A stretch of DNA of 45,329 nucleotides, taken from Bdellovibrionota bacterium (lineage in GTDB: Bacteria; Bdellovibrionota_C; UBA2361; JBIKWN01). Below, one piece after another: positions 6,174 to 45,232 of this stretch; position 1 is the first letter of the stretch, and every line of letters starts with the position of its first letter. The position numbers were made by a program, and so were the translations under genes. The notes under the pieces are model-generated. The model was not told where the DNA came from. It worked only from the letters and a program-made list of their open reading frames with translations, and searched no databases. The DNA is taken from NCBI GenBank assembly GCA_044356295.1, contig JBIKWN010000016.1:1-45329 (forward strand), read 5' to 3'.

Positions 6174-6791
6174 CTAGCGCAAGCGCTTTTTAGTCTTGAG
6201 TTCTGCTTCGAAACCGTCTTCTCGAGAAGGGACTTCGAAGTAGAACCAGAATTGGTTGTTCATGCTCACGATCCAAACGTAGAGCATGGGGATTTTTCCG
6301 TCCGACATTGTCTTGCGACTAATGAGCGGATCGAAATCTTGACCCCTTGATTTTCGGATTGCTTCTCTTTCCTCTTGAAAAGATGTGTTCTCATCGAACC
6401 ATCTCTGCATGAGGCTTCTTTGAAGCTTCACTGTCACTTCATGTGTCAGTTCGGCTCCTGGGAAGAGAAGCTTTGTACTCTCATCATCATCGAATTGAGG
6501 GATCTCGTTAAAGATCTCTCCTCGATCAATGCTCACCCAAGATTCAGCATTGCAGCCGATCCTGAGTTGCTCCCCTCGGACTCTTCTTACCTCAAGATGA
6601 ATCGAGGTCGAGTTTTTCCGTGGGTGCCGAGCATCCAGAAACGACGCCATGCATTCCGGAGTTGCCGAAATGATGATGAGCGATTTCTGGTTTCGTTCGA
6701 ACGAAAGGGCTTCCCCTTTCTTTCGAATGACGGCGGTTCGGCCCTTTCGGGTGACGATGAGGTTTGCTTTTTTATCGGGTGTAACATCCAT
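6174..6791 (-). CDS. Atypical CsrA/RsmA-like domain protein with an internal insertion and a C-terminal extension
   Basis: IRKKGEALSF...SIHLEVRRVRGEQLRIGCNAESWVSIDRGEIFNEI aligns by eye to CsrA TRRVGETLMI...[35 protein letters not shown]. Confidence 0.6.
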   Translation of the reverse strand: MDVTPDKKANLIVTRKGRTAVIRKKGEALSFERNQKSLIIISATPECMASFLDARHPRKNSTSIHLEVRRVRGEQLRIGCNAESWVSIDRGEIFNEIPQFDDDESTKLLFPGAELTHEVTVKLQRSLMQRWFDENTSFQEEREAIRKSRGQDFDPLISRKTMSDGKIPMLYVWIVSMNNQFWFYFEVPSREDGFEAELKTKKRLR

Positions 6792-12060: not shown

Positions 12061-13785
12061 ATGCCACTCATGTCTTCTTTTCATCATTGCAAAAATTCAA
12101 TCGTTTCTTTGCCACTTTCCTTGCAAAAAATTAAAATAACTAAAATCTTTTTTTGTGCAACAACAGCTGCAGGACTGCTTCTATCCATCGCTGCGAATGA
12201 TTCGTTAGCACAATCTTCTTCTAGAAAAATTCTTTGCCAAAACACAAGAACATTAGTTGTTACAGAAAGAAGTAAGTGTAGAGTCGGTGAAAGACTCGCT
12301 GCCAATATTCAAAACGGAGCAAATGGATTAAACGCTGCTTCAGGAATATCTGGTATTTCAGGTGTTTCTGGAACTGAAGGAATCAGTGGTGTCTCTGGTC
12401 TTTCTGGTATCAGTGGAGTTACTGGTGAAAGTGGAGTTTCAGGTATTAGTGGTGTTACTGGTGTTACTGGTGTTACCGGAATATCAGGAACTCAAGGTCT
12501 TTCAGGAGTTTCTGGAGTAACTGGTGATAGTGGAGTTACTGGAGTTTTAGGATTTAGCGGTGTTTCAGGAGTAACTGGTGTATCCGGTCAAACTGGAGAA
12601 TCAGGCGTATCAGGTGTAACCGGAGAATCCGGTGTAACAGGTTTATCCGGTTTGTCAGGAGTATCAGGAGCAACCGGCGTTACAGGCGTTAGCGGTGTAA
12701 GTGGTTTAACTGGTGTAACGGGAATTGATGGATTATCAGGAGTTAGTGGAGTTACAGGTATTGTCGGTGCAACTGGAAATTCAGGTGTTTCTGGATTATC
12801 AGGTTTATCAGGCGAAACGGGCGTATCTGGAACAACTGGTTTAAGTGGAGCTAGTGGAATTTCTGGTGTTAGTGGAGTAACTGGAGCATCTGGAAGCATA
12901 GGTGCTAGTGGTGAAGTTGGTGCTAGTGGAGTTACTGGTGCACTTGGACTTCCAGGGTTAGGAGGATTTCCAGGAGCTGCTGGTGTAGCAGGACTTTCTG
13001 GTGTGTCTGGAGAGATTGGAGTATCTGGAGTTGTTGGTGCAACTGGAGCCTCTGGAGTTACTGGTCTTGATAGTGCTGTTCAAGGTGCTTCCGGCGTAAC
13101 AGGAGTTGAAGGAGTATCAGGTTTCTCAGGAATTTCTGGGGTTTCTGGTGAAACTGGGGTTGCAGGTGCAACAGGTGTTGCAGGTGCTTCAGGATTTACT
13201 GGAGTCGAAGGAACAAGTGGTGTTTCTGGATTCACTGGCGTAACTGGTGCAACAGGAGTTACAGGGGTGTCTGGAATAACTGGGATAATTGGATTGTCAG
13301 GTGTTAGTGGTGTATCAGGAATCACTGGAGTCGAAGGCGTAACTGGAGTACTCGGAGCATCAGGAATCCAAGGAAATTCAGGAGTCGCTGGAGCATCCGG
13401 TGTTACAGGCCCAACTAACGGTGGAACATTCCTCTCGTCATCAGGGGCTCAAATAAATACAAACTCTACATTATACTTACCATTATCAGGAACAGGGTCC
13501 TCAGCTACAGAAGCTAGTGTATCTCAAACTGTAGCAAATACATGCCTCCTTACATCCATGGCAGCTTATGTAGATGGAGCAAACCTTGGTTCTGATTCAG
13601 TAACAATTACCCTTAGAGTTGATACGACTGACCAAGCATCAATTCAATGCAGCATAACAGGTGCTAGTATAACATGTAACGAACCAGACGATATTACACT
13701 TAACGTTGGTAGTTTGATCGCTTGGAAAATTGAAAGTTCCAATGGTGGTAACCGTAGAGTAAGAATATCAGCGAGATGCGAGTAA
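12061..13785 (+). CDS. Secreted collagen-like protein 1 (Gly-X-Ser/Thr repeats); true start probably a little downstream
   Basis: Signal-like segment, Cys motif LCQNTRTLVVTERSKCRVGE, GXY tract at 12316-13416 (367 aa), about 120-aa Cys-containing beta-rich C-terminal domain. Confidence 0.88.
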   Translation: MPLMSSFHHCKNSIVSLPLSLQKIKITKIFFCATTAAGLLLSIAANDSLAQSSSRKILCQNTRTLVVTERSKCRVGERLAANIQNGANGLNAASGISGISGVSGTEGISGVSGLSGISGVTGESGVSGISGVTGVTGVTGISGTQGLSGVSGVTGDSGVTGVLGFSGVSGVTGVSGQTGESGVSGVTGESGVTGLSGLSGVSGATGVTGVSGVSGLTGVTGIDGLSGVSGVTGIVGATGNSGVSGLSGLSGETGVSGTTGLSGASGISGVSGVTGASGSIGASGEVGASGVTGALGLPGLGGFPGAAGVAGLSGVSGEIGVSGVVGATGASGVTGLDSAVQGASGVTGVEGVSGFSGISGVSGETGVAGATGVAGASGFTGVEGTSGVSGFTGVTGATGVTGVSGITGIIGLSGVSGVSGITGVEGVTGVLGASGIQGNSGVAGASGVTGPTNGGTFLSSSGAQINTNSTLYLPLSGTGSSATEASVSQTVANTCLLTSMAAYVDGANLGSDSVTITLRVDTTDQASIQCSITGASITCNEPDDITLNVGSLIAWKIESSNGGNRRVRISARCE

Positions 13786-13811
13786 GCTTTTTTATTGAGT
13801 AGGCAATTCCG

Positions 13812-15512
13812 ATGCAATCATTAGTTCATATGAAAACCTCAAAAACAAAAATCATCTCAGTAGCTATTTTAGCAACTGCTTTAATGTCAGTTTCGGTGAG
13901 CCTTAGTGCTTCAGCCCAAACTTCAACCGTTAGAGTCGTATGCCAAAATAAAAAGACAAGAGTCGTAACAGGAAGAGATATAAAATGTAATTCAGGAGAG
14001 GTAAGAATTACCTCAATATCACCAGGCTTAAATGGTGAAGCTGGAATTAGTGGTATATCTGGAGTGTCAGGAGAATCAGGTTTAAGTGGTATATCTGGAG
14101 TATCCGGTGAGAGCGGTGTATCAGGAATAACTGGTGTCACTGGTGCTTCGGGTGAAACAGGAGTTTCAGGCGTTGAAGGTTTAAGTGGCGTATCTGGATT
14201 ATCTGGTTTCTCAGGAATCTCTGGTGTTTCAGGAATAAGTGGTGTTAGTGGTGTAACTGGTGTCTCTGGTGTTTCAGGATTGTCTGGAGTTACAGGATTA
14301 TCAGGAGTCTCTGGTGCTTCTGGATTTAGTGGTGTTTCTGGTGTTCTAGGTGCAACTGGTGTTTCCGGTGTAACAGGTTTCTCAGGAGTTAGCGGTGTAT
14401 CAGGATCACTCGGATTATCAGGAGTGAGCGGTGTACTTGGCGTATCTGGCTCATCAGGTCTTAGTGGAGTACAGGGTGTAAGTGGAGTATCTGGTATATC
14501 TGGTGTTTCAGGTATCTCTGGTGTGTCAGGAATTAGTGGTCCTACTGGATCGATTGGTGCTTCTGGTGCTTCAGGAGTAAGTGGGGCTACAGGCGCTAGC
14601 GGAGCTTCTGGTTTATCCGGATTGTCAGGAATATCAGGTGTTAGTGGAGTAACTGGAATTTCTGGTCTTTCTGGAATTTCTGGATTATCTGGATTTAGTG
14701 GAATATCTGGCGTATCTGGTATTTCAGGCCTCTCAGGTGTAGTTGGAGATACAGGAGTATCAGGACCAAGTGGAGACGACGGTATTGTAGGTGTCAGCGG
14801 TGTTTCTGGGATTTCTGGATTAACAGGTGTTTCAGGTGTATCTGGTGTGACAGGAGTTTCAGGTTTCTCAGGTGTGAGTGGATTTACCGGTGTTATCGGT
14901 GATTCTGGAGTCTCTGGAAATTCAGGTGTACAAGGTGATTCAGGAGTATCAGGACTAAGCGGAGTATCAGGATTGAGTGGTGTTTCAGGTGTTACTGGAT
15001 TAGCAGGCGTATCGGGAGTTTCAGGAATATCTGGTGTCACTGGAGTAAGTGGAATAACAGGTGTGCTTGGAGCGACGGGTGTTTCAGGATTATCCGGAGT
15101 CTCTGGTGCTACAGGAGTTGGGAATCTTTTCTCATCATCATCTAGTACTGCAATTAATTTAAGTAATGCGACTCTTTATGCGCCATTAACTGGAACAATA
15201 ACTTTATCTGCTACTGAAGCTGATATTATGCAAACTCATCACATGGGTTGCGATGTTGAAAGCTTATTAGGTTTCGTGACTGGGTTTATGGGATCTCGGT
15301 CTGTAACTTTTACTTTAATGGTGGAAGGATCTCAGACAAGTCTATCATGCCCAGTAACAGGTAATCTTTCTAACTCATGTTTAGCGACTGCTGGAAGCAC
15401 AATCAGCATTGATTCTGGTGATAGAGTTTCGATAAGAATTGTAGGAAGTGCAAGTGCTGGAACTAGGTACGTTAAAACCTCAATCAAATGTAAAAACACA
15501 ACAGTCGGGTAA
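13812..15512 (+). CDS. Secreted collagen-like protein 2 (Gly-X-Ser/Thr repeats)
   Basis: Signal peptide (ASA-Q), VCQNKKTRVVTGRDIKCNSGE, in-register GXY tract at 14025-15122 (366 aa), paralogous C-terminal domain. Confidence 0.9.
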   Translation: MQSLVHMKTSKTKIISVAILATALMSVSVSLSASAQTSTVRVVCQNKKTRVVTGRDIKCNSGEVRITSISPGLNGEAGISGISGVSGESGLSGISGVSGESGVSGITGVTGASGETGVSGVEGLSGVSGLSGFSGISGVSGISGVSGVTGVSGVSGLSGVTGLSGVSGASGFSGVSGVLGATGVSGVTGFSGVSGVSGSLGLSGVSGVLGVSGSSGLSGVQGVSGVSGISGVSGISGVSGISGPTGSIGASGASGVSGATGASGASGLSGLSGISGVSGVTGISGLSGISGLSGFSGISGVSGISGLSGVVGDTGVSGPSGDDGIVGVSGVSGISGLTGVSGVSGVTGVSGFSGVSGFTGVIGDSGVSGNSGVQGDSGVSGLSGVSGLSGVSGVTGLAGVSGVSGISGVTGVSGITGVLGATGVSGLSGVSGATGVGNLFSSSSSTAINLSNATLYAPLTGTITLSATEADIMQTHHMGCDVESLLGFVTGFMGSRSVTFTLMVEGSQTSLSCPVTGNLSNSCLATAGSTISIDSGDRVSIRIVGSASAGTRYVKTSIKCKNTTVG

Positions 15513-15532
15513 CCATCATCAAGTATAACGAA

Positions 15533-17278
15533 ATGAATAGATTTAATTTTTATCCAAAAATCGAGTTAAAGATGAACCAGTCTCGTTTAACACTAGTTAT
15601 CGTACTCTTGGCATGTTGTTCGCTAGCAAGTATTGCAGTTGCACAGAGCCCCCGAATTGCTGCTGCTTTAGATACTAAGACAAGAGTACTTTGTCAAAAT
15701 AGAACTTCAAAAGTAATGACCGCCCGTGAAGGTTTAACTTGTAACAGAGGTGAGGTAGTCGTTGGTCGTGTGCGTGATGGAGCTAACGGAATTGATGGAA
15801 TATCAGGTGTATCTGGGATCACTGGTATATCAGGTGTTACCGGAGTTTCAGGTGAAAGTGGAGTAACAGGAGTATCCGGAGAATCAGGAGTATCTGGAGT
15901 AACAGGAGTTACTGGTCTAAGTGGATTGTCAGGGCTTAGTGGAGTTTCAGGAACAACTGGGATTACAGGTGTATCAGGAAATACTGGTGTTACAGGATTA
16001 TTAGGTCTCTCTGGAGTTTCAGGTGTAGACGGCGCCACTGGTGTAAGTGGATTTTCAGGAGTTTCAGGCGTAACTGGAATATCTGGTGAATCAGGTGTTT
16101 CAGGCATAGAAGGAGTTTCAGGTGTTTCAGGTGTTGAATCCTCAGTATCCGGAGTTTCGGGTGTTTCAGGATTTAGTGGTTTCTCTGGAGTCTCAGGAAT
16201 AAGCGGTGTTGATGGTGCAACTGGACTGAGCGGACTTAGCGGCGAAACTGGAGTAATTGGTGCAACAGGTCTTAGTGGAATGAGCGGATTTGAAGGTTCT
16301 ATTGGAGCCGATGGTGCGACGGGTGTCTCTGGAGTATCTGGTCTTACAGGTGTAGAAGGTGCAACTGGATTACTAGGAGCCACTGGAGTAAGTGGTTTAT
16401 CTGGTGTTTCAGGAATAACTGGATTATCCGGAGTAAGTGGAACTAGTGGTACAACTGGTGTAACTGGTGTTGCTGGTTTATCAGGTGTTAGTGGAATTAA
16501 GGGTGCAACTGGAGTCACAGGTGGACAAGGTGCTCAAGGGCCATCAGGTATTTCTGGATTAAGTGGTGTATCAGGAGTAACAGGAGTAGATGGCGTATCT
16601 GGAATCTCTGGTTTCTCTGGTGTAACAGGATTATCTGGCGTTACTGGTGTTAGTGGTTTCAGTGGTGTTAGTGGAATAACAGGTGTCTCTGGTTTCAGTG
16701 GAGTGTCAGGTGTTACTGGTGCTGATGGTGATAACGGTGCATCTGGTGAAAGCGGTGTATCCGGTATTAGCGGAATCGCTGGACTTAGCGGAGTTTCTGG
16801 ATTATCAGGATTATCTGGTGTATCAGGTGTCATCGGAGTATCCGGTGTAACAGGAACATCTGGTGTTGAAGGATACGGAAGTCAATTCTTAGCAAGTTCT
16901 AGTACGAATATTAACCCAGAAGTCGCACAGTATTATCTAAACATTGGTGGCCTCGGCTCTTCAACAAATGAAACATCTGCACAAAGAGTTTTCTCTGCTG
17001 ATTGCTCCATTGATAAACTTTACGGAATCATTGATGGTTCTGCACTCGGTGTTGGTGACTCAGTAGTATTCACCGTACGTATAAATTTTGTCGATGATGT
17101 AGCAACTTGTACAGTTGATAACGGAGGAGATGGATTAACTTGTTCGGCAACTCCAGGCAGCCCAACACTAGTCCAAGCTGGAGATCTAGTTACAATTGCT
17201 GTTGATGGTTTAACTTCAACTCCTGGTAACATTGGTCTTAGAAGAATTAGAGCTGGAATTCGCTGTCAATATAAGTAA
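15533..17278 (+). CDS. Secreted collagen-like protein 3 (Gly-X-Ser/Thr repeats)
   Basis: Signal peptide (AVA-Q), LCQNRTSKVMTAREGLTCNRGE, GXY tract at 15779-16879 (367 aa), paralogous C-terminal domain ending IRCQYK. Confidence 0.9.
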   Translation: MNRFNFYPKIELKMNQSRLTLVIVLLACCSLASIAVAQSPRIAAALDTKTRVLCQNRTSKVMTAREGLTCNRGEVVVGRVRDGANGIDGISGVSGITGISGVTGVSGESGVTGVSGESGVSGVTGVTGLSGLSGLSGVSGTTGITGVSGNTGVTGLLGLSGVSGVDGATGVSGFSGVSGVTGISGESGVSGIEGVSGVSGVESSVSGVSGVSGFSGFSGVSGISGVDGATGLSGLSGETGVIGATGLSGMSGFEGSIGADGATGVSGVSGLTGVEGATGLLGATGVSGLSGVSGITGLSGVSGTSGTTGVTGVAGLSGVSGIKGATGVTGGQGAQGPSGISGLSGVSGVTGVDGVSGISGFSGVTGLSGVTGVSGFSGVSGITGVSGFSGVSGVTGADGDNGASGESGVSGISGIAGLSGVSGLSGLSGVSGVIGVSGVTGTSGVEGYGSQFLASSSTNINPEVAQYYLNIGGLGSSTNETSAQRVFSADCSIDKLYGIIDGSALGVGDSVVFTVRINFVDDVATCTVDNGGDGLTCSATPGSPTLVQAGDLVTIAVDGLTSTPGNIGLRRIRAGIRCQYK

Positions 17279-33606: not shown

Positions 33607-33683
33607 GCGAGTTTAGCTCAGTTGGCTAGAGCGCTTCCTTGCCAAGGAAGAGGCCGAGGGTTCGAATCCCTTAACTCGCTCCA
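33607..33683 (+). tRNA. tRNA-Gly (anticodon GCC), CCA encoded
   Basis: GCGAGTT TA GCTC..GAGC G CTTCC-TTGCCAA-GGAAG AGGCC GAGGG-TTCGAAT-CCCTT AACTCGC T CCA. Confidence 0.96.
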
Positions 33684-33832: not shown

Positions 33833-35851
33833 ATGCACTGTATTGGTGATAAGGTAGAGCGACTAGCGATTCTTGCAACCGCCACATCAGTGATTGGCGG
33901 GTTACCAGCTATTGCACCTGCGCAAACTTTGTCAGGATTTCAAGACCAATCTCTTTCGTACTCAAGCTTTTCTAATTCTGAACAGTATCGACGACAAAAA
34001 ATGTTAGCTGATATTGGTTTGGCAGAGCAGCCTACGTTTTTTAATCTTCTGCCAGGAAAAAAATTAGAGTTTTCTTTTGGTAAGCAAGCATTGTTTTCAA
34101 TGTCTGAAAATAAAAATTCATTTGCGTTTACATCAAAAAATTTCAATGCTGGATATGATACCTTAAAATTCAAAGGTAAATCATCGTTAAACCAAATTGC
34201 ACTGCAAACTCAGTTTGGATTCGGAGCGTCAAAGCTCTCCTTCGGGGGATTCCGAGTTGGTGATGAAAAAAGTAGCATCGACCGTCAATCATTTGCATTA
34301 TCAAACGGATCTAGTTTCTCTTTAAAAGCAGAGCGTACCTCTATTGATAAAGAATTTAACCGCATCGCTGACCTTCCAAACGCCACTCCAGAAGAAAAAA
34401 AGAAGTTTGAGCAAGAAAGAGGTTTTGAGCGGAGTGATATCTCTGCCAGTTTTAATCCAACAAAAGGGCTCTCGTTTTCTACCGATAGATATAACTCAGA
34501 TAGTAAGGACAGTGGACTTTCTCGTACTGGATACCGAGACTTTGGGTCGCTTTCATTTGGTGGAAATGGAGCAGTTTCCTTTCTCAATGAAGGTTCAGAA
34601 AGCTCAGATAATGGAACTAGTCTTAATAAAAGAAGTCGTCAACTGTTCTCGTTCGGATTAAATTCAAAAAATCTTTCGTTTTCAGGAAATCATGATGTTC
34701 AATCATCCTCTTCGCCAGGTAATGATAGCAAAGTAACAACAACTGGTTTTGGACTTAGTAGCCAAGGCAAATTGCCATTCAAAGCATTTGTTGAGAACAA
34801 ATCTATCTCAGCGAATTCTTTTCAAGAAAACACAAAATTGATTGATTTTCAGATTCAACCTACAAAGTCAGTAGCATTGCATGCTCGTTTGGTTGATACG
34901 GATCGAAACCAAGGTGAATCTTCAAAGTTATCTGTTATAGATTGGTCTGCCGCAGTGACTTCAAAAATTAATTTTTCAGGAGTAGTTACTAATTTTAGTT
35001 CAGACCAAGGAAATGATCTTTCAGTCAATCATTTTAAACTTCAAGGTGAAATTGCTAAAGGTTATCAATTTTTAGCTATGCAAGAATCACAAAACGGTGA
35101 AAGGTTTGGTTCGAGGCAGATTACCGACCTATCTTTTTCAACCCCCAACATTACTTCCGTAAAACCTTTCTCGTCACTATCTTTTAGTGCAAGAAATTAT
35201 ACATCAGAATTAAATGGTGCAGAGGAAAGTCATATCACTTCTTTCAATCTATCAGCTCAAACAAAATCACTTCGCATTCAAGCAGAGCATCTTGATTTAA
35301 AAACTCCATCTAGCTACACCAAACGTGAACAAGGAATTACAATTTCAAATATTCCAAAACCGACCGATAAAGTTACTGCTTCAGTGCAATATAAAACACG
35401 AGAAGTATCACAAAATGATTCAGCACCAAGAACAATAAATTCTACCATAGAATATAAAGCAAGTTCGAATTCAAAGTTGGGTATCAAATATTCTTTACAT
35501 CCTGAAAATGAAAAACGAGAACCACTTCAACGCAGTGATTTTGATCTGACGTATCGTCAAGATTCAAAAGATGTAAGTCTGAATGCTTCCATCGGACAAA
35601 GTTATGATTATGCACAGGACTTTCGATCGACCCGACTGCAAGTTGGCATGTCGAGTAAGTTTAAAGATGGCTCAAAGCTCGATGCCATGATTGGTGGTTC
35701 TTTAGAAAATAGACATACGTTAGAACGCTTTACTCCATTAATGGGAGTATCCTACGAACGAAAAATTTCCGCAGATGATTTTATAAATCTACAAACTGCT
35801 TTTAACGAAAGAGGATGGCAATTTAAGTTAAGTGCCTCGCGTAGATTTTAG
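33833..35851 (+). CDS. Exported beta-strand-rich protein, probable outer-membrane beta-barrel
   Basis: Signal peptide (APA-Q), many amphipathic strands rich in S/F/T, C-terminal WQFKLSASRRF ending in Phe. Confidence 0.65.
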   Translation: MHCIGDKVERLAILATATSVIGGLPAIAPAQTLSGFQDQSLSYSSFSNSEQYRRQKMLADIGLAEQPTFFNLLPGKKLEFSFGKQALFSMSENKNSFAFTSKNFNAGYDTLKFKGKSSLNQIALQTQFGFGASKLSFGGFRVGDEKSSIDRQSFALSNGSSFSLKAERTSIDKEFNRIADLPNATPEEKKKFEQERGFERSDISASFNPTKGLSFSTDRYNSDSKDSGLSRTGYRDFGSLSFGGNGAVSFLNEGSESSDNGTSLNKRSRQLFSFGLNSKNLSFSGNHDVQSSSSPGNDSKVTTTGFGLSSQGKLPFKAFVENKSISANSFQENTKLIDFQIQPTKSVALHARLVDTDRNQGESSKLSVIDWSAAVTSKINFSGVVTNFSSDQGNDLSVNHFKLQGEIAKGYQFLAMQESQNGERFGSRQITDLSFSTPNITSVKPFSSLSFSARNYTSELNGAEESHITSFNLSAQTKSLRIQAEHLDLKTPSSYTKREQGITISNIPKPTDKVTASVQYKTREVSQNDSAPRTINSTIEYKASSNSKLGIKYSLHPENEKREPLQRSDFDLTYRQDSKDVSLNASIGQSYDYAQDFRSTRLQVGMSSKFKDGSKLDAMIGGSLENRHTLERFTPLMGVSYERKISADDFINLQTAFNERGWQFKLSASRRF

Positions 35852-36033: not shown

Positions 36034-39000
36034 ATGGGAAACGTTTCAACCTCAACTCATAAAAAACAGCCTGATTCTTCGGATGCAAAATTGCCGAAAA
36101 GGAATGCTGATTCTCGTCCAAAGCCAAAAGAAGACGACGACTTGGCTAAAGCAGAAAAGGCTTATAAAGCTACTCGATCAAGATACGGCGGAAGATTAAG
36201 AAACCTTCAAGATGTTGAGAACCGAATTGCTAATGCAACATGGGGTGATCATGTTACAGGCAATGTAGCTAAATGGGAAAAAGAAGCTCAAGCAGAGCGC
36301 GCACAAGCAAAACGTGAACAAAAAGCTATGCTTGAGCAAAAAGCTCAAATGCAAAAAGCGCGTGAAGCTAAAGTTCGTGCCGAAAAAGCAAAAGCAGAAG
36401 CGAGTAAGGCGACTGATCCAAAAATAAAAAAAGAACTTCAGATTAAAGCACAAAAAGAAGAAGACAAAGTTTCTGACCATGTCAAAAGTGCCAAGGCTGC
36501 GAGAAAAAAAGGCAACGAAGAAAGCAAGAAATATCTCAATGACATGAAAGAGGCTAATGAGCCTAAGCCTGCTAAACATGAAAGAGCAACCAAAGCTCAC
36601 GAAGATGTCAAACAAGACAAACAAAAAGTAAGAAACGAAAAAGTAGATGCTCCAACCAGTGCAAACACAAAGCGCCTTGCTGATGCTCTAGATAAGCAAC
36701 AAAAATCGACTGATAGTGTTGTAGCTCAAGGTGGCGGAATTAAAACTAATGTCGAAGATACTAATAGTAGAGCACAGAATAGCATAAAAACCGATGTTAT
36801 TGCTTCTACAATCTCTCCCGTAGTCGGAATGATTATGAATGGAGGAATGAGTACCGCCCTACTGCAAGAGCGGGACAACGACAGAAAACTTTTAGAAGCT
36901 AATAATAAAATTGCTGCTGAGAACTTAAGAAATGAACAGAAATTAAAAGAGACAATTAAAACAGTTCAAGAATACGAAGCCAGGGCGGCAAAATACAAAA
37001 AATTGGGCGACGATCAGGAAGCTGCTCGATACTCTAAAATGGCAAAGGAGCTTACCGACCAAGCTCTTAGTGAAACAAAAACAATACGTACAGTTCGTCG
37101 TGAAGAAACTAAATCGGCTGGAACTAATTACATTAAAGAGCAAAAAAAAGTAACTGAACAATACGAAGCTGTAGCAGGTCGAAATGATAAAGCTGCAATC
37201 ACAATGCGTGTTACTAGAGACGTAGCCGTTGTAGCTGGTGCAACCATTGCGACAGGTGGTGCTGCAACTGCAATAGCTGCAACAGGAGCTGGGACGTTGG
37301 CTGTAGTTACTGGTGCAACCGCAGTCGGAACTTTAAGTGGATCTACAATAGGTGCAGTTTCTAATACTGCAGGCGCTGTATCTTCTGGTACGACTGGCTA
37401 TAAAACTTGGGGTGATGCTTGGAAAGATGCAGGTAGCCAAACAGTTCAAGATGCAAAATCAAGTTTTTATTCTTCTGCAGGAACTGCTCTTGGGATTGGT
37501 GTTGCAGGAAAATTAGCATCCCCAATTATTGGAAAGGTTGGTGAACAAGGTGGACGCTTAGCACTTGGATCCATTACAGCAGCAACAGGTCAAACCGCGA
37601 CAACAGCAATGAATCTTGGTGAGCATTTCTATAATACGTCCGAAGAATTCAATAAGTTAAAAGCTGCAGGACAAATCAAAGAATCAGATAGAGCGCAATA
37701 TTTTGCGGACCGAGGTTTGTCTCCTCAAGCAATGGGTAAAAGTTTAGCAATTTCTTTTGGTACTGGTGTTGTCGGTGGGAATATCGGCGCACGATCTGAT
37801 TTAATCCGAGAGGGCGCAACAAGTGTTTGGGGCAAAGTTGGAGCAACAACACTAGACACTGGTGGATCAGCTGTCATTGGGCTAACTACAGCCTATATTC
37901 AAAATGACGGCAAAATGACTTATGAAGATTTTGCTAACGAAGCCGCCGGCGCAGTTACTAGTGTCATGCAGGGGAATATAGGATCTAAAATTGGTAAACA
38001 TGCTGCCAATAATTCCAATGCACCTGATCTTAAATTAGAAACTTTCAATAATAACGCACAAGAAGACTTACCAATTGCTGCAATGCGTGTTGGTGCGACT
38101 CTTCCACCTCCGATGGATATCACACCTACACAACCTCAAAAATCCATCGCAAGAATAATGGGCGATTTAGTAAATCAACCTAAGGCAGTAGCGTCGACAC
38201 ACACTGGAGCGTTAGGAGTCGTAGCCTACAATAAATTAAATAATGAACCAGGCGCAAAACCAGCAAGAGTTATTATCATGTCTCCAAGTGGTGGTGATGG
38301 AATTACACCAGCTGGTATTGCATACCAACTATTTAGAAATAGGTTTGCTCCAAACGAACATACTGGCAATAACATTGGACTGCAAAAAGTTACTGTCGTT
38401 TGTACTCCAGAACAAAAACCAATGTTAGAATCTGCACTTCGTCGGGAAATGGAAACTAATCGACCACAAGCTTTTGCTACTGCTGGCGGAACAACAAGAC
38501 TTGAAGACTATGTTGACCTAGTAACAGCCCGTCCAGGTGAAGTAGTAAATGTTGAAGTGCACAGGTCACCTTTAGCAACCGAAGAAGCAAAAGCAAAAAC
38601 TCCTGCTTCGGAAAAATTTGCGATAAAAATACCTTCCGAAGGAAGTGAAAAACCAACTGCATTAGTGAGTAAAATTAATCCTAATGATGGTTCACTTCAA
38701 AAAGTTAAACGTGAACTTCATTATAAACCAGAACAACAGCCAGAGCTGAAACCACAAAGTATAGTACCTGTCGAAGGGAGACCTCAGTTACACGCAATTG
38801 GAACTGGAGGACTAATTACACCAGAGCCTAATTCATGCTTAATACTAACAAACGGCAAAATCGGATCTGAATCAAGAACATTCATTATTGATGATGGGAA
38901 CCCTAACGGTTTTGCACGCTCACGTGGGCTCTATGATCTAAATCCAAACAATGTAGAAGCTTTAACGCACTTTCATGCCGACCATACCCAGGGGATGATG

Positions 39001-42000
39001 GAGCGAATAAAAATACGCTCTGATAGTGGAGTAAAAAATACATTAATCGTTAATAAGTATACAAAAGCACAAGTTGAATCGTATTTTACTACTACCTATG
39101 GACGTAAGGCAGGACAAAAAATAATTAACTCGATTGATTTTAAAGTTCTAGAGCCTGCAGATAATGACACAAGAAGTATTTCTTACAAACCTATCCAAAT
39201 AGGGAATACTAAGATTGAAGCCATAAGAACTCGTCATAACTATGGAAGCGAAGGAAGACTAGAAGCCGTTGCATATAAATATACTTTTGATAATGACGGA
39301 ATAAAAACTTCTTTTGTAACAACTGGTGATACCCAATTTGGCTCTCGATATCTTGCCGCATATAGTGATACTGTCAAAACCGAACTTGATAATATTAAAA
39401 ACAGTAAAGACTTTACTACCGAAGATTTTGATAGAACTAAAAAATTAGTTACAACGTATTTTGACGAAGATGGCCGTGCAAAATTTAATGATGCTTCAAA
39501 TAAAAGCCCATCTGAACAAAAAGCGTTCATTCAGGACTATCTTGAAAATGAATTAAAAACTGTTGCAAAGCATACTGAACGAAACGAAAAATTCGATCGA
39601 GAATTAGCAACATTTTGCAAGCCAGCTGATGATGTGTCATCTCATCTTGTTTACCTAGATGCAGGTGGAGCTGCACGTCCTGGTTTTATTCCAGCAGTTG
39701 ATACTGCTCATGCGTCAGGTATGGTTGCACCGATTCATATGGGCGCTTCAGATGCGCAGCACTTAATGCACTTAGTCGGCGTTAATGACCAACGGATAAA
39801 TTTCATTGCAGGGCATACATCATCGACTGCAAAAATAATTGGTGGAACGACCGCAGGCTCCGAAGGCGGCAACCGAAGCTATGATCTGCGAGCAAATAAA
39901 AGCATCGATTGGACATCAGGTTATGCTGATGGTGTAACACGTGTTTCATCAGATGGGGCACGAGCTGTTTATTATGCTGACGAAAAATCGCTACAATCTG
40001 CTTATGAAGGAATTCTTGCTGATAACGCGGCAAGATCCTCTAGACCCATCAATGAAAGCGTATCCGAGGTCAATAATAGTAAAGGAGTCATTGCATTTTA
40101 CGATCGAAGAACAGGAGCAATTCATTCAATCGATCCAAAATTTAAGGGCGCCACTAAGGAAGCACGTATTTTAACCGGTGCGCTTCTTCGTCATGAATAC
40201 ACACATCACTTGCAAGAAACTAATGGAGTGAAGATTAACGAAGTCGAAGCATTTAAATCTATGTTCGACTATGTTGACAGAGTCAATGCAAAAGATCCAA
40301 GTAGGCAATTTGAGTTAAGAATTACAAATGACAATGTGCAGATTCATGAGCTGAAAGCTGGGCAAACTGCGCGAAGATTATCAGAAGCGGAAATTCAGCG
40401 AATTGTTGATCATAATTACAAGAATGTTGATGGTGCGGTTGCGCCAATGAAACTTGACAATGATGAGCTTCGACATTCTATTGACAATGTAAAAGAAACA
40501 ATAAACGGTCAATTTTTACATATCGATGAACGCTTGGTCACAAATATATTAAATAAATTTGGCCCCGACACAAAAACCGCATCAGAGGTCATGGGCATAC
40601 TTTCCCATGCAGGTAGTTTTCGGGGATTAGAAAATTTTGCCAAAAATTTAAAGATCAGAGGTAATGATAAGATTCTAACTTTAAATAGAGGGTCTTTTGC
40701 GGATTGCATTGGTTATTTTAGCGGCTCCAAAAATCTACTAAATGGTGTTTTAGTAAATGATAAAAGTTTTGTATCGGAATTACATCCAACAGCGAATACA
40801 TTTGTTTTTATTGATGATGTAATGATAGATCATATTCGTCAGAATCCGGAATTCGCAGATAAGCTAACAGCTGAAAATATTAAAATTGCTTCTACACCAT
40901 GGATCGATAATGGATTAAGTGTATTTCGACATTCCGATCTTGATACTATTCCTTCAACAATTAGTTCCGTATTAGATCGCGTTAAAGCTTATAAAATAAA
41001 GCATCCCAATGCTTCTACTGATACTGCCATGAATATGATAGCCAAAGAGGATTTGCGAGCTAAATTGATTGACGCCGGAGTATCACCGCATACTGCTGAT
41101 GCAATAATTGGAAAAGATTTAGCGATTCAGCCAACGCCATCTTCGAAAGCTAGCAAAATTGCTGACGCGTTAAATGGAAATCAGTATATAGATGACGCTG
41201 CTATTGAAAGGTACCTGGAAATGATCCCAGAGCAAGATAGGATGCATGCATTAAATATACTTATGATGGGTGCGGATGTTCATAGCCCAAGCAGTTTAGC
41301 TTCTGTCCATCAACAACAATATAAGAAAATATTAGAACTTGCAGAAAGTAAAGGTATCCATCCTTCAAAAATTTTATTCCTTACACCTGAAGGCTTAAAA
41401 AGCTATTCAGTCGCAGCTCTTGGATTTAGGCACACTAACGATATACATGCCTCACAATTTATAAATGTTGATCAACTTTCTACTTTACTCGATCCATCCA
41501 AAACACCTTTTAAGGGGCGTGATTCTATGATTGTCATCTTAGATGATGTTGCAGGATCTGGGGGAACGCTAGGTCAAATTTATAAGTCACTTGGAACCCA
41601 GGGACATAAATTCTTAGGTGAAATTGTCATAGCGCCAACTGTTACAACTGCTTCGGCAGAAAACAGCTTTATGGAAAGATGTAAACTTGACGCTAAGCTA
41701 AACTACATTCCTGGTTACAAGGCTTCACGTCTTGAAGATAATCCTTATTTAAAAAGCTTGCCTGATGGTGTTCAATTTAGAATTAGAGCAGAATTTGCAA
41801 AACATCTTTTAGGGTATAATCAAGATGGACTGATGATGGCCTTCCCTTATATGTCACCTAACAACAATAATGGAGTATTTGTATCTTCAATTGCACCAAA
41901 CGTCACACACAACGGAAGAGGCATTAAGCCACCTTCAACTGGGATGCCTAAAAGTGATATTGTAGGACAAGAAAGATTTATTTTTCGTGTCCTAAATTCA

Positions 42001-42036
42001 AACCAGCAGCCAAGTTATTCAGCAACGAAAAGATGA
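36034..42036 (+). CDS. Giant multi-domain toxin/effector-like protein: Lys/Glu coiled coils, Gly/Ala-rich hydrophobic helices, MBL-fold hydrolase, HExxH motif, C-terminal PRTase-like domain
   Basis: THFHADH (38965-38985) with later TRHN, TTGDT and PIH motifs; LLRHEYTHHLQE..NEVEAF (HEYTH at 40192-40206); IVILDDVAGSGGT (DD..T at 41542-41568) and YMSPNNN. Confidence 0.8.
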   Translation: MGNVSTSTHKKQPDSSDAKLPKRNADSRPKPKEDDDLAKAEKAYKATRSRYGGRLRNLQDVENRIANATWGDHVTGNVAKWEKEAQAERAQAKREQKAMLEQKAQMQKAREAKVRAEKAKAEASKATDPKIKKELQIKAQKEEDKVSDHVKSAKAARKKGNEESKKYLNDMKEANEPKPAKHERATKAHEDVKQDKQKVRNEKVDAPTSANTKRLADALDKQQKSTDSVVAQGGGIKTNVEDTNSRAQNSIKTDVIASTISPVVGMIMNGGMSTALLQERDNDRKLLEANNKIAAENLRNEQKLKETIKTVQEYEARAAKYKKLGDDQEAARYSKMAKELTDQALSETKTIRTVRREETKSAGTNYIKEQKKVTEQYEAVAGRNDKAAITMRVTRDVAVVAGATIATGGAATAIAATGAGTLAVVTGATAVGTLSGSTIGAVSNTAGAVSSGTTGYKTWGDAWKDAGSQTVQDAKSSFYSSAGTALGIGVAGKLASPIIGKVGEQGGRLALGSITAATGQTATTAMNLGEHFYNTSEEFNKLKAAGQIKESDRAQYFADRGLSPQAMGKSLAISFGTGVVGGNIGARSDLIREGATSVWGKVGATTLDTGGSAVIGLTTAYIQNDGKMTYEDFANEAAGAVTSVMQGNIGSKIGKHAANNSNAPDLKLETFNNNAQEDLPIAAMRVGATLPPPMDITPTQPQKSIARIMGDLVNQPKAVASTHTGALGVVAYNKLNNEPGAKPARVIIMSPSGGDGITPAGIAYQLFRNRFAPNEHTGNNIGLQKVTVVCTPEQKPMLESALRREMETNRPQAFATAGGTTRLEDYVDLVTARPGEVVNVEVHRSPLATEEAKAKTPASEKFAIKIPSEGSEKPTALVSKINPNDGSLQKVKRELHYKPEQQPELKPQSIVPVEGRPQLHAIGTGGLITPEPNSCLILTNGKIGSESRTFIIDDGNPNGFARSRGLYDLNPNNVEALTHFHADHTQGMMERIKIRSDSGVKNTLIVNKYTKAQVESYFTTTYGRKAGQKIINSIDFKVLEPADNDTRSISYKPIQIGNTKIEAIRTRHNYGSEGRLEAVAYKYTFDNDGIKTSFVTTGDTQFGSRYLAAYSDTVKTELDNIKNSKDFTTEDFDRTKKLVTTYFDEDGRAKFNDASNKSPSEQKAFIQDYLENELKTVAKHTERNEKFDRELATFCKPADDVSSHLVYLDAGGAARPGFIPAVDTAHASGMVAPIHMGASDAQHLMHLVGVNDQRINFIAGHTSSTAKIIGGTTAGSEGGNRSYDLRANKSIDWTSGYADGVTRVSSDGARAVYYADEKSLQSAYEGILADNAARSSRPINESVSEVNNSKGVIAFYDRRTGAIHSIDPKFKGATKEARILTGALLRHEYTHHLQETNGVKINEVEAFKSMFDYVDRVNAKDPSRQFELRITNDNVQIHELKAGQTARRLSEAEIQRIVDHNYKNVDGAVAPMKLDNDELRHSIDNVKETINGQFLHIDERLVTNILNKFGPDTKTASEVMGILSHAGSFRGLENFAKNLKIRGNDKILTLNRGSFADCIGYFSGSKNLLNGVLVNDKSFVSELHPTANTFVFIDDVMIDHIRQNPEFADKLTAENIKIASTPWIDNGLSVFRHSDLDTIPSTISSVLDRVKAYKIKHPNASTDTAMNMIAKEDLRAKLIDAGVSPHTADAIIGKDLAIQPTPSSKASKIADALNGNQYIDDAAIERYLEMIPEQDRMHALNILMMGADVHSPSSLASVHQQQYKKILELAESKGIHPSKILFLTPEGLKSYSVAALGFRHTNDIHASQFINVDQLSTLLDPSKTPFKGRDSMIVILDDVAGSGGTLGQIYKSLGTQGHKFLGEIVIAPTVTTASAENSFMERCKLDAKLNYIPGYKASRLEDNPYLKSLPDGVQFRIRAEFAKHLLGYNQDGLMMAFPYMSPNNNNGVFVSSIAPNVTHNGRGIKPPSTGMPKSDIVGQERFIFRVLNSNQQPSYSATKR

Positions 42037-42066
42037 TGAGAATCCAAAATAAAAGTATATATTAAT

Positions 42067-42642
42067 ATGAAATCACAACTAACAGAAATCGAAATTGCTA
42101 ACCGTTCTAAAATGCTTCAGCGTCTTGCCACACCACCAGAAGACATTAGCGCTGCAGCGGAAGTATTTCTTGATACTGGCAGTTTTGAAAAATTAGGATT
42201 TAAGTCAACTATTTTAGGACTTGAAGGCTGTGGGATCGAAGCCGTAGTTTGTTTGCGAGATAACCCAGACGCATTTATCGATCGTTTACACGCTGTGTGC
42301 GGCCGTGATCTATCGTGTTCCCCTCAGATAGCAAATTGCCAGGCTACTAATGACGGATATTTAATCGTGGTGTTCGACTGGAAAGGAATAAATCGTTCTG
42401 ATTTACTGGAATACGATGACTCCATAATTTCACAAGAAGCAAAAGGTAAATTTTACTCTGAAATTTCAAAACTTACAGATGAAGGTTATTGTCATCCATA
42501 CGCAGCAGCTGGCTATGCACATTGGAGAATAGATCCAAGAGATGGGGCAATTATACTTTTAAATTGGGAAGATGTGATTGAAATGCACCCTGGCAACCGT
42601 GATGAGTATCTAAATGATATTAGTCATTTATTACAAAGCTAA
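42067..42642 (+). CDS. Hypothetical acidic protein directly downstream of the giant gene (candidate immunity/partner; kinase-like C-lobe pattern)
   Basis: 191 aa, 30-bp gap, same strand. KLTDEGYCHP...WRID...IILLNW echoes the kinase-fold G..HxD...N...DW arrangement without the catalytic Asp residues. Confidence 0.6.
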   Translation: MKSQLTEIEIANRSKMLQRLATPPEDISAAAEVFLDTGSFEKLGFKSTILGLEGCGIEAVVCLRDNPDAFIDRLHAVCGRDLSCSPQIANCQATNDGYLIVVFDWKGINRSDLLEYDDSIISQEAKGKFYSEISKLTDEGYCHPYAAAGYAHWRIDPRDGAIILLNWEDVIEMHPGNRDEYLNDISHLLQS

Positions 42643-43209
42643 CTTTGCTAGCTCTTCGCTTCGGATAGATTCAAGTATTGCTATGAATTTTTTTGCTGGA
42701 AGAGAAGTATGCTTACCTTCTTTGCGACCTGTATCATGATAAAGTGGACGGTTTGCTGTTGCCAATAATGAAGATAATACATCCAAATTTTGCTCAAACT
42801 TTGCACGAATTGCAGATTCTATTATCTGCAAATGCCCGTCAGACCCATATGCTAGTTCTTTCCCACCGTAATAAATAACGACACTACTATCTTCGAATTT
42901 TTTAGAATTCAACCTTCGATGAATAACTCCTAGTTTTCTTGCATGTGCACCAATAGAATTTGAGGCACGCTCCCTTAAAGCAGAATCCGGAGGAAACTTA
43001 ATAGCCTGAATAAAGCCCTCTGTAGATTGGTATTCAACACCATCAAGAATAAACGGGGCCCGGGCAAAATTTGATAAAAGACATGATTCAGGATTGCTAG
43101 CTATTACATTTAAAGATGCAGGCTGCGGATTACGCAAAGTGTCCGCATCAACTGGGAAGGCAGATTGACTTAGCTCTAAATGTGAATATTCAGTGTTGCG
43201 ACTTGGCAT
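42631..43209 (-). CDS. NADAR (YbiA-like) family protein
   Basis: LSNFARAPFILDGVEYQSTEGFIQAIKFP, ARKLG, AIRAKFEQN...LLAT. Confidence 0.85.
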   Translation of the reverse strand: MPSRNTEYSHLELSQSAFPVDADTLRNPQPASLNVIASNPESCLLSNFARAPFILDGVEYQSTEGFIQAIKFPPDSALRERASNSIGAHARKLGVIHRRLNSKKFEDSSVVIYYGGKELAYGSDGHLQIIESAIRAKFEQNLDVLSSLLATANRPLYHDTGRKEGKHTSLPAKKFIAILESIRSEELAKLAL

Positions 43210-43648: not shown

Positions 43649-45232
43649 ATGTCCTTAGATGCCTGCCAAAGAGTGTCATCAAAAAACACTCATATTGAGC
43701 GCCAACCAGCCGCCAACCAGACTGAACACGTCTCAGAATCACCAATGCGCGTGATTGCATTATCGGATCAAATTCGTTTTGCAATTGAATACGTTTCCAC
43801 TATGAATACATTTGCAGGTAAAATTACCAACGAATATAAAGAACGCGGTGAAGATAATTTTAGGAAACTCGTGTCTGAACTGAAAGCGGCGACTCAAGCC
43901 GTTGCTGATACATGTAATATACCAGCTGATCAACATGAAAAGTGGAGTTATCAACTAGCTGCCGGAGTTTTTGTTACTCAAAGATCATACTCAGGATTTC
44001 TAACACATATTTCTGAACTCCCTGAATACTCGAGTGAGGATATAGCACTCGCGATTTTCTCGCCCAATGAAGATGTTAAAAATTTTCAGTCTCTTGTCGC
44101 ATCTTTGCTTGAAGATAATCCAATTATTGGCACCACCACTGCTTTGTTACTTCCTTTTTTAATGAGAGTCCGTGATGCAAGTAATTTAGAGGATGACCAA
44201 ACTGCTAAATGGCTGCGAGTTTCAGATTGGTATATCAAAGTCATCGAAGATATTGTTACTGCAAATATTGCAGTTGATAAGCTTTTTAACACTCTCCAAT
44301 TAAAATGCGATAAGTTACCAGAAGTTGAAAAATCTGCTGTCGAGAATTTTTTAGTGCAGTGGAAAAACGATATTTCAATGATACTTACTGAATCAGTAAA
44401 TTTAGCTAATACAGCTGCACTTGGCCAAATTGGTTTGAGAAGCGATTGCAGTAGTATTACTTATTGGCCCATGTATCCAGCTCCCTCAGGCAGTAATCCT
44501 TCAGTTATTCGAAATAGTGTACAAGATCTTTACTCAGCCGATATGCAGCGATTTAGACAAGATTGGCTCATGCAGGATGAAAATCGAACGGGGTGTGTAG
44601 TTATTCCCACGCCAATTGATTTTAGAGAGCTTGGTTGGTTTGTGGATTACTTTAGTAAATACCTTGAAAATTTAAGTCAAGCTGTGGTGAATCAGGGTTC
44701 TCGAAGAAATCCAGTCGAGGTATCACTGAGTCATGGATTTTCAGCAACTATTCGTCCAGAACAAGATTCAAATGGGCAGGCTCGAATTGGATTTAGATGC
44801 GAGGGAGGAGATCCTAAATATAAAAAATTCTCACTTCGAATAGATCTGGATAGAGGAGTTCCTACTTTTGATTTTGGTTCAACGAGTTATAAACAAGCCT
44901 TGCACTATGCTTTGTTTATGAAGGATTTGAGTGTTAATGAGAATGCTCCATCCTATGAAGAATTAACTACACCAACTGGTTCGCTTAATAAAAATGCATT
45001 AAAGTACCGCGTTGCTTTAAATTCCTTACCGCTTGATCCAGATAAAAATTTAATGCCTGGTGAAAGAGCCTCTTTAATTGCTTCTACACTCGCTTCAGCA
45101 GGAAAATTTATAGGGACACGCAGTGCCACAACGATTGTTGGGCACCACTTTCAAGAAAAAGTATCCACTATTAACGGTGATGACTTTGCAAAAATTTGTC
45201 GTGGACTATCAAAGATTCTTCTTGCAGCATAG
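43649..45232 (+). CDS. Hypothetical protein (helical N-terminal half, alpha/beta C-terminal half)
   Basis: 527-aa ORF; no family recognised. Confidence 0.7.
   Translation: MSLDACQRVSSKNTHIERQPAANQTEHVSESPMRVIALSDQIRFAIEYVSTMNTFAGKITNEYKERGEDNFRKLVSELKAATQAVADTCNIPADQHEKWSYQLAAGVFVTQRSYSGFLTHISELPEYSSEDIALAIFSPNEDVKNFQSLVASLLEDNPIIGTTTALLLPFLMRVRDASNLEDDQTAKWLRVSDWYIKVIEDIVTANIAVDKLFNTLQLKCDKLPEVEKSAVENFLVQWKNDISMILTESVNLANTAALGQIGLRSDCSSITYWPMYPAPSGSNPSVIRNSVQDLYSADMQRFRQDWLMQDENRTGCVVIPTPIDFRELGWFVDYFSKYLENLSQAVVNQGSRRNPVEVSLSHGFSATIRPEQDSNGQARIGFRCEGGDPKYKKFSLRIDLDRGVPTFDFGSTSYKQALHYALFMKDLSVNENAPSYEELTTPTGSLNKNALKYRVALNSLPLDPDKNLMPGERASLIASTLASAGKFIGTRSATTIVGHHFQEKVSTINGDDFAKICRGLSKILLAA

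Follow-up and report, generated by a model that had tools for sequence, protein, structure and literature searches.

A giant mosaic protein of a Bdellovibrionota bacterium with a putative phosphoribosyltransferase warhead and a candidate two-part immunity set

The window analysed here, an entire contig of 45,329 bases from a Bdellovibrionota genome (2.96 Mb in 128 contigs, 93.6% complete), encodes a mosaic protein of 2000 amino acids (aa), named P0001. It is read from a single open reading frame (ORF), at 36034..42036 on the + strand and without internal stop, and other proteins match it domain by domain only. We hold with moderate confidence that P0001 is an effector of the polymorphic-toxin type, with a phosphoribosyltransferase (PRTase) as its warhead and an immunity in two parts, and that it possibly phosphoribosylates its target. 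Three elements are repeatedly linked: a PRTase in the position of a toxin, a partner that is probably non-catalytic, and an enzyme acting on ribosyl-amine bonds. This linkage suggests to us that a writer toxin is paired with an immunity in two parts. An initial annotation of this DNA had proposed a string of domains for the 2000-aa protein, and all those it named were found in the intact frame. The behaviour that it expected of polymorphic or polyvalent conflict proteins is also apparent, with the C-terminal module standing behind unrelated N-termini and the N-terminal domain preceding mostly unrelated C-termini.

The C-terminal phosphoribosyltransferase module

The module at the end of P0001 has two lobes, conserved together in 41 sequences: an N-lobe (aa ~1485-1741, 40486..41256, + strand) and a type I PRTase lobe (aa 1742-1965, 41257..41928, + strand) that was recognised by its fold and by its loop for phosphoribosyl pyrophosphate (PRPP). 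The PRTase lobe is matched by the Pfam family PRTase-CE (PF24390). The match spans aa 1779-1949, and its score on P0001 is 26.5 bits with hmmscan, against a cut-off of 27, and 30.1 bits in a six-frame search of the genome. In the AlphaFold model of the module (predicted local distance difference test, pLDDT, 85.4; predicted template modelling score, pTM, 0.87), this lobe superposes on a uracil phosphoribosyltransferase (1vst) with a VIA-align Z of 12.3 and a root-mean-square deviation of 2.8 over 137 residues. Another 17 PRTase chains are listed with Z above 10, and Foldseek gives a probability of 1.0 to orotate phosphoribosyltransferases. The PRTase-like domain that had been proposed for the C-terminus is thus borne out as a type I PRTase fold. 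The PRPP loop reads LDDxAGSGxSL (VILDDVAGSGGT), and D1837, D1838 and G1843 are invariant across the 41 aligned sequences, which also display the family motif FPYMAPDNNN. When we aligned 81 other copies of the module, nearly all had retained the loop (hhhhDDxxxSGxS) and the second motif (FPYMxP[DN]NN). Motifs and modelled fold together suggest that the second lobe is an intact type I PRTase, probably competent for catalysis.

The N-lobe is modelled with high confidence and has two residues, Y1561 and D1594, that are invariant in the 41 sequences. The fold-search listings for the module were taken up by matches to the PRTase lobe. The two lobes are separable, because two genomes have the N-lobe in the absence of the PRTase lobe (G031:C8:7649-8356 and G068:C31:1976-2566), once as an ORF of 300 aa and once inside an ORF of 1491 aa that also has an HExxH...E domain.

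We searched a library of 1.84 billion representative proteins exhaustively with HMMER, using aa 801-2000 as the query. The module gave 192 representatives at E≤0.001, including 138 at E≤1e-10. Nearly all of the 192 cover positions 685-1165 of the query only (aa ~1485-1965 of P0001), and the matched proteins, between 450 and 4222 aa long, have this part at their C-terminus. Given these matches and the existing Pfam model, the module is not a new family, and the description of P0001 in the initial annotation as the member of a new effector family has to be abandoned. The regions ahead of the module are diverse, with eCIS_core (formerly DUF4157), annexin, Ntox3 or no known family. Six of the 22 library proteins that we scanned start with eCIS_core and three contain annexin repeats. 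The 15 long module proteins taken from public loci include two with eCIS_core, and one each with annexin, Ntox3 and RelA_SpoT.

Two relatives in public loci are multi-warhead proteins. One has a RelA_SpoT nucleotide pyrophosphokinase domain behind the PRTase module in the same chain (L065:3646-8787), and the other has an Ntox3 domain ahead of it, again in the same chain (L019:3244-7407).

The public loci, 71 in all, come from a scan of one genome per species with a single peptide pattern, a sample biased to conserved members. Their labels are Vampirovibrio, Gastranaerophilales and other Melainabacteria, Myxococcota (Kofleriaceae, Haliangiales, Polyangia), Bdellovibrionota and a few others. Within the phylum, 16 of 124 genomes have the module. 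Predatory bacteria and gut Melainabacteria commonly have it. Loci of the Gastranaerophilales type (L039-L044 and L048) have two module genes of ~550-580 aa arranged head to tail, with the PRPP loop and FPYMxPDNN intact.

The partner gene and the NADAR gene

The gene that follows P0001 encodes a partner of 191 aa (42067..42642, + strand), whose frame begins 30 nucleotides (nt) past the end of P0001. Of the 71 public loci, 24 proved in an iterated search of all ORFs to have a homologue of this partner beside the module gene, nearly always immediately downstream, and L002 and L004 also have one by the module gene. By label, it was found in 15/15 loci of Myxococcota, 1/2 of Bdellovibrionota, 1/2 of Burkholderiales or Pseudomonadota and 7/52 of the remaining ones. 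In the phylum, the partner profile matches 10 of the 124 genomes, nine of them strongly, and the module is present in eight of these nine. The adjacent immunity gene proposed in the initial annotation is therefore a conserved neighbour; its role in immunity is a candidate one, suggested by adjacency.

The model of the partner (pLDDT 84.2) resembles protein kinases. All 50 rows listed by VIA-align are kinases, among them Rad53, the archaeal RNA kinase Ark1, Rio2, Bud32-type kinases and others, aligned over ~130-160 residues with Z of 10.0 to 8.0, values moderately above the background of the tool. Foldseek gave 80 matches at E≤0.001. P86 is the only invariant residue in the alignment of 27 partners, with L136, G140 and W167 almost invariant. 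The model thus has a minimal, two-lobed kinase-like fold, and the partner would probably be a non-catalytic, pseudokinase-like binding protein. The prediction of a complex between module and partner gave scores of 0.59, 0.02 and 0.00, and is uninformative either way.

The third gene is convergent to the other two (42631..43209, - strand) and overlaps the 3' end of the partner gene by 12 nt. It encodes a protein of 192 aa, of N-glycosidase type, that Pfam assigns to Phage_30_3 (E 7.4e-17; score 61.9 bits, cut-off 36); the match to NADAR is below threshold (E 1.3e-5, 25.9 bits against 35.1), as is an NCBIfam match to a glycosidase family for riboflavin intermediates. The initial annotation had listed the partner among the neighbours and overlooked this gene, the most informative one. 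Phage_30_3 is rare: the gene is the only one in its genome, and only 5 of the 124 genomes of the phylum have the family. All five genes of this sample are on the contig of a module gene, within ~2 kb of it. The arrangement varies between loci. Module, partner and NADAR genes are collinear on one strand in L067, L068 and L074; in L002 a NADAR-like gene is convergent, as in the window; and in L038 and L065 a NADAR gene is found behind the module, with the partner undetected. In L004 the partner domain and Phage_30_3 are joined in a single protein of 464 aa, and a search with the partner profile for longer proteins found this one fusion.

Seven loci of Myxococcota have the partner domain fused to a barrel of ~250 aa. 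This barrel matches BtpA/SgcQ (TIGR00259) in all seven and phosphoribosylanthranilate isomerase (PRAI) in two of the seven, always far under the curated cut-offs, and a profile search of the PDB gave PRAI at E 0.067 only. PRAI acts on an N-phosphoribosyl amine. PRTases form such an N-ribosyl bond from PRPP (PMC5512222). NADAR enzymes are reported to cleave the N-glycosidic link that joins ADP-ribose to guanine and to be the antitoxins of DarT1 and YarT, and the superfamily has also been proposed to include N-glycosidases of riboflavin intermediates (PMC11125620).

The remainder of the protein and its genomic setting

The N-terminal region of P0001 (aa 1-230, 36034..36723, + strand) is rich in Lys, Glu and Ala, as the initial annotation had noted: K, E, R and D make up 42% of it, and K and A are the most frequent residues. 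It shows only weak similarity to the N-terminus of an ORF of 994 aa in a genome of the same genus. The protein starts with MGNVST (36034-36051), which we take to fit a loose version of the eukaryotic N-myristoylation pattern. A eukaryotic target is possible, because of this start and of the annexin fusions among the relatives.

Next comes a Gly-rich hydrophobic domain (aa ~235-670, 36736..38043, + strand). The hydrophobic Gly/Ala/Thr-rich region that had been placed at ~37220-37990 is recovered here: G, A, S and T make up 53% of aa 391-660, and hydrophobic windows of 19 residues (Kyte-Doolittle scores up to 1.72) lie at aa 396-442, the hydrophobic core, and at aa 481-500, which together correspond to nt 37219-37533. 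The domain is conserved: nine further genomes of the phylum have ORFs, of ~410-1690 aa, that match it, so that it is found in 10 of the 124 when the genome of the window is included. Eight of the ORFs that we fetched, of 807 to 1688 aa, match it with phmmer (E 4e-31 to 7e-9), and two more join the set through pairwise BLAST. Save for two close pairs, the likeness between fetched ORFs is limited to this domain and their tails are mostly unrelated, which amounts to a common N-terminal region with alternative C-termini. In the alignment a hydrophobic segment, VVAGATIATGG, is conserved and is followed by Gly-rich amphipathic stretches. The domain has no Pfam family, and elsewhere in its proteins the Pfam scan gave just one match, GGDEF. 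Comparisons in the ESM Atlas, which we treat as leads only, scored up to 0.90 with clusters without name and 0.83 with a PT-TG cluster. The Gly-rich domain is thus the common front end of a family of large proteins of the phylum, and is partly membrane-like.

Two enzyme-like domains separate this front end from the module. The first is a metallo-beta-lactamase (MBL)-fold metallohydrolase with a long insert (aa 916-1268, 38779..39837, + strand). The Pfam match of P0001 to Lactamase_B_2 is weak (E 0.0025, under the cut-off), as are the matches of the MBL-zincin part to the PDB, all at E≥0.11. The domain aligns with P0081, a library protein of 591 aa, at E 5e-29, and P0081 exceeds the Pfam cut-offs for both Lactamase_B and Lactamase_B_2. 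The two proteins have the metal-ligand positions in common, namely HxHxDH (HFHADH at aa 979 of P0001), H1067, D1099, H1235 and H1261, in agreement with the complete set of ligands that had been read from the sequence. The second domain (aa 1290-1465, 39901..40428, + strand) is small, ~170 aa, and contains the HExxH motif as HEYTH at aa 1387. An iterated search found the HExxH...E domain in eight other proteins, one of which has two copies. In an alignment of seven related domains from six proteins H1387, E1388, H1391 and E1403 are invariant, so the zincin-type motif of the initial annotation is no chance match. No Pfam or PDB family was significant for these domains (the best were Reprolysin_2 at 0.018, M48 at 0.02 and MPTase-PolyVal at 0.09, in one member each), and eCIS_core gave no match in the seven domains at E≤5. 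On its sequence we treat aa 1290-1465 as an uncatalogued zincin-like domain.

Full-length orthologues of fixed architecture had been named in the initial annotation as evidence that would speak against an effector. We found no full-length relative of P0001 in a word-indexed search of proteins of 1100-3500 aa, in 40 related genomes or in the representative library. The word-indexed search with aa 200-900 also gave no match; these blanks reflect low sensitivity, because relatives of aa 200-900 do turn up in genomes of the phylum. A sequence search of the PDB with the whole of P0001 returned nothing at E≤1. In a genome of the same genus, front end (the ORF of 994 aa) and module (an ORF of 510 aa) are separate genes on other contigs. 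The lack of a full-length relative and these separate genes lead us to conclude that P0001 is a lineage-specific fusion of parts that are distributed separately.

Lake-water metagenomes also contain the DNA of the locus, whose bearer is uncultured. In a possible source run, a single contig covers the whole 7.5 kb; error-free pieces in a run of another study account for 0.79 of the sampled words of the locus; and two further lake-water studies have near-identical fragments. Gaps in the cover by runs X2-X4 carry no weight as evidence. The comparison with metagenome contigs listed no joints or indels across the locus, and nothing suggests a chimeric assembly, as far as the contigs can tell. There was no RNA run among the sequencing runs listed as holding the stretch. 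A deeper contig (depth 32, runs X1 and X2) shares just 18-28 bases with the locus, at 39306-39323 and 40631-40658, and then diverges; these overlaps are probably chance or short common words rather than a joint.

The locus belongs to a variable region. Two genomes of the same genus match the window at the DNA level in a YaeI-like gene, a SprT-like gene and a tRNA-Gly(GCC) gene identified with ARAGORN (33607..33683, + strand), and have no DNA match across 33.8-45.3 kb. In one of them the genes beyond the tRNA are unrelated at the protein level too. As the similarity within the genus stops there, we regard 33.8-45.3 kb as a lineage-specific region with the tRNA gene as its left boundary. Family scans covered the 33 ORFs of at least 100 aa among the 46 listed on the contig. 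They named no integrase, capsid, tail, MuF, relaxase or VirB4, nor any phage or conjugation family besides Phage_30_3. The Pfam scan gave no eCIS_core/DUF4157 match in P0001 or its neighbours, and the RHS, RTX, FHA, LXG and PAAR families, reported as missing in the initial annotation, were indeed without a match in P0001. PADLOC defence models matched neither P0001 nor the partner.

Directly upstream of P0001, an ORF of 672 aa (33833-35851, + strand) has a signal-peptide-like start, an alternating beta-strand-like sequence, a C-terminal Phe and no Pfam family. Its nearest cluster in the ESM Atlas is a 'putative SprA' (0.95), with other outer-membrane barrels behind it, and it could be a dedicated outer-membrane channel. 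We considered it as a member of the system and dropped it, as its homologues are not beside the genes of other proteins with the N-terminal domain. Past the NADAR gene, an ORF of 527 aa (43649-45232, + strand) has no family in Pfam, NCBIfam or PADLOC and no homologue in the fetched loci; the contig stops 97 nt beyond it. Further away, three tandem genes (12061-17278, + strand) encode proteins of 566-581 aa with collagen triple-helix repeats (Pfam E ~1e-54 each) and lie where the G+C content is raised (0.43-0.44) and the GC skew is strong (+0.22 to +0.29). An ORF of 205 aa (6174-6791, - strand) has a sub-threshold match to CsrA over aa 63-97 only and is unusually long for a CsrA-like protein. 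The G+C content of 38% and the collagen-like and CsrA-like genes had raised the idea of an effector of the Legionella type, which we dropped because related loci are labelled Bdellovibrionota.

Proposed mechanism, rival explanations and significance

P0001 would have been assembled in its lineage from four parts: the head with the Gly-rich domain, the MBL domain, the HExxH...E domain and the two-lobed warhead of ~480 aa. The warhead would use PRPP to transfer ribose-5-phosphate onto an amine-type acceptor in the target cell, and a nucleobase, in nucleic acid or in a nucleotide, is our leading guess for this acceptor. In the producer the 191-aa partner may bind or block the warhead, and the neighbouring N-glycosidase of NADAR type may remove the adduct. 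In Myxococcota the role of NADAR would fall to the BtpA/PRAI-like phosphate-binding barrel, which is fused there to the partner. The nucleotide pools that the initial annotation named as a target are likewise conjectural. For the remaining parts we can only conjecture that the zincin domain may free the warhead, in line with the processing role proposed for HExxH in that annotation, that the MBL domain may provide a second activity and that the Gly-rich domain may aid the passage through a membrane. A narrower version of this scheme, which we offer tentatively and consider doubtful, has a PRPP-using toxin that phosphoribosylates a macromolecule or a nucleotide, most likely at an exocyclic amine of a nucleobase, and an eraser brought in by the adaptor of pseudokinase fold, as a weapon common to lineages of predators and of host-associated bacteria (Bdellovibrionota, Myxococcota, Vampirovibrio and gut Melainabacteria). 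If true, it would be the first toxin of the PRPP-phosphoribosylating type, a parallel to ADP-ribosylating toxins with another fold and another donor.

Polymorphic toxins are said, after Zhang and Aravind in 2012, to combine a common front end and a variable C-terminal toxin with a downstream immunity gene. Here too the module is found on many N-termini, the N-terminal domain with many C-termini, and a small conserved gene lies directly downstream. Unlike them, P0001 has no known trafficking domain and no secretion system was found for it, and its candidate immunity is in two parts, a pseudokinase-like protein and an enzyme of N-glycosidase type. The toxins associated with extracellular contractile injection systems (eCIS) have an N-terminal DUF4157, a C-terminal toxin and linkers that may exceed 1000 aa, as described by Geller et al. 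2021 (PMC8213781). The relatives of the module hold the same C-terminal position in eCIS_core proteins, behind very long linkers, and P0001 is likewise large and multi-domain, with an HExxH domain; it differs in having no eCIS_core, in a zincin that does not match this family and in a genome where no sheath gene was found. The DarT1-NADAR and YarT-YbiA pairs (PMC11125620) are similar in that a NADAR gene is tightly linked to the gene of a ribose-phosphate-type transferase, so as to form a writer toxin and an eraser antidote. The putative writer of P0001 has a PRTase fold, with PRPP as its expected donor, instead of being an ADP-ribosyltransferase that uses NAD+; it is also part of a giant multi-domain protein and has a third, kinase-like component.

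Several results weigh against an exported toxin with its own immunity. On the side of export, the N-terminus of P0001 is hydrophilic and by eye, without a predictor, shows no signal peptide; its Pfam scan has no secretion or trafficking domain; and searches of the genome, which is 93.6% complete, gave no match to eCIS_core, Phage_sheath_1, VipB (the sheath of type VI secretion systems) or VirB4, so that the delivery route is as unrecognised as the initial annotation had it. On the side of polymorphism, the six-frame search gave no second module gene in the genome of the window, and no second Gly-rich front end was found there. P0001 therefore does not belong to a within-genome variable set: the paralogues with the same N-terminus and other C-termini that the initial annotation wanted to see are absent from this genome and present, as relatives with variable tails, in other genomes of the phylum. 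On the side of immunity, the partner was undetected in 47 of the 71 public loci, and the NADAR gene, being convergent, is not co-transcribed with P0001. The fold of the partner is no known immunity fold, and the 27 aligned partners have no conserved K, D or N column, thus no conserved catalytic Lys, HRD Asp or DFG Asp, in an assignment of columns to kinase motifs made by reading the secondary structure of the model. Neither partner nor NADAR was detected beside the tandem module genes of L039-L044 and L048. These modules are apparently active and lack both, and so fit poorly with a toxin that endangers its producer; they fit a toxin harmless to the producer, or a protein that is not a toxin. 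Finally, type III retrons, a kind of intracellular defence system, are reported to have PRTase-CE families among their accessory domains (PMC13712802).

This last point leads to a different explanation, which we judge unlikely: that P0001 is part of an intracellular, membrane-anchored system of anti-phage defence (abortive infection) or of the toxin-antitoxin kind, with the PRTase, MBL and zincin domains as effectors within the producer and with partner and NADAR as antitoxins. Such a system would account for the missing signal peptide and secretion machine, for the hydrophobic hairpin-like segment, which could anchor P0001 in the membrane, and for the position in an accessory region by a tRNA gene, and NADAR is an antitoxin in the DarT1 and YarT pairs (PMC11125620). 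The module also shares with the PRTase-CE of retrons (PMC13712802) the Pfam family, the type I fold and the PRPP loop. It differs from them in having no reverse transcriptase or msr/msd context and in the addition of an N-lobe of ~260 aa and of the FPYMxP[DN]NN motif. Neither a reverse transcriptase nor a sensor NTPase nor any other gene of defence came up in the scans of the window, and the failure of PADLOC to match P0001 or the partner points the same way. The relatives of the warhead occupy the toxin slot of eCIS_core/DUF4157 proteins or have Ntox3 and annexin domains beside them, all of them marks of exported toxins.

Two further explanations have less in their favour. P0001 might be a polyvalent protein that a phage or conjugative element injects with its DNA to disarm the recipient, and would then be left in a remnant integrated at tRNA-Gly. 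Several enzymatic domains in one chain, here including a PRTase and a zincin-like domain, are the hallmark of such proteins according to Iyer et al. 2017 (PMC5512222), where the role of their PRTases is called enigmatic; one of the seven zincin domains weakly matches MPTase-PolyVal (E 0.09), a neighbour is of the phage gp30.3 family, and the variable region begins at a tRNA gene. We nevertheless find this highly improbable: no mobile-element gene (integrase, capsid, tail, MuF, relaxase, VirB4) came up in the scans of the contig, which ends 97 nt past its last ORF, or in the VirB4 search of the genome, the front end is another one than that of the polyvalent proteins, and the relatives of the module are spread over chromosomal loci in Myxococcota and Melainabacteria and have a partner gene of their own, which is conserved. 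It is scarcely credible that P0001 is a metabolic or regulatory multi-enzyme outside conflict, for example in membrane-tied nucleotide salvage or signalling, with partner and NADAR as enzymes of the pathway. Phosphoribosyl metabolism does include enzymes of all three kinds, PRTase, NADAR and BtpA/PRAI-like barrels, and the partnerless tandem genes of gut Melainabacteria do resemble ordinary enzymes, but the module is patchy in the phylum (16/124 genomes), the locus is not conserved within the genus, and the architectures are extremely variable, with fusions to toxin-associated domains.

The polymorphic-toxin-type effector thus remains our preferred reading, and in the literature that we searched its warhead seems not to have been described as a toxin. 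Term searches of the available main text of PMC8213781 and of its 2024 successor found no mention of a PRTase toxin or of phosphoribosyl, and in the latter PRTase, NADAR and annexin are all unmentioned. Literature searches outside subscription journals found no published work that joins PRTase with DUF4157 and, supplements also being out of scope, none that treats a PRTase as a toxin between bacteria. The papers retrieved for NADAR, phosphoribosyltransferase and toxin together, judged mainly by their abstracts, do not tie a PRTase toxin to NADAR. Since supplements and subscription journals lay outside these searches, a computational description of the module may already exist.

Among the proteins of polymorphic-toxin type, the warhead is unstudied and the immunity set is unusual. 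The PRTase domains of conflict proteins have been noted by computational work (PMC5512222). A directly testable hypothesis for them is provided by the combination of a PRTase warhead, a partner shaped like a kinase and an enzyme similar to NADAR or PRAI, and an antitoxin role of NADAR in this setting would widen its range beyond ADP-ribosyltransferases. The same protein yields two further uncatalogued domains, namely its Gly-rich front end and the HExxH...E domain of small size. A defined activity for a module that is so frequent among predatory bacteria and in gut Melainabacteria would bear on how these little-known groups attack prey or deal with hosts.

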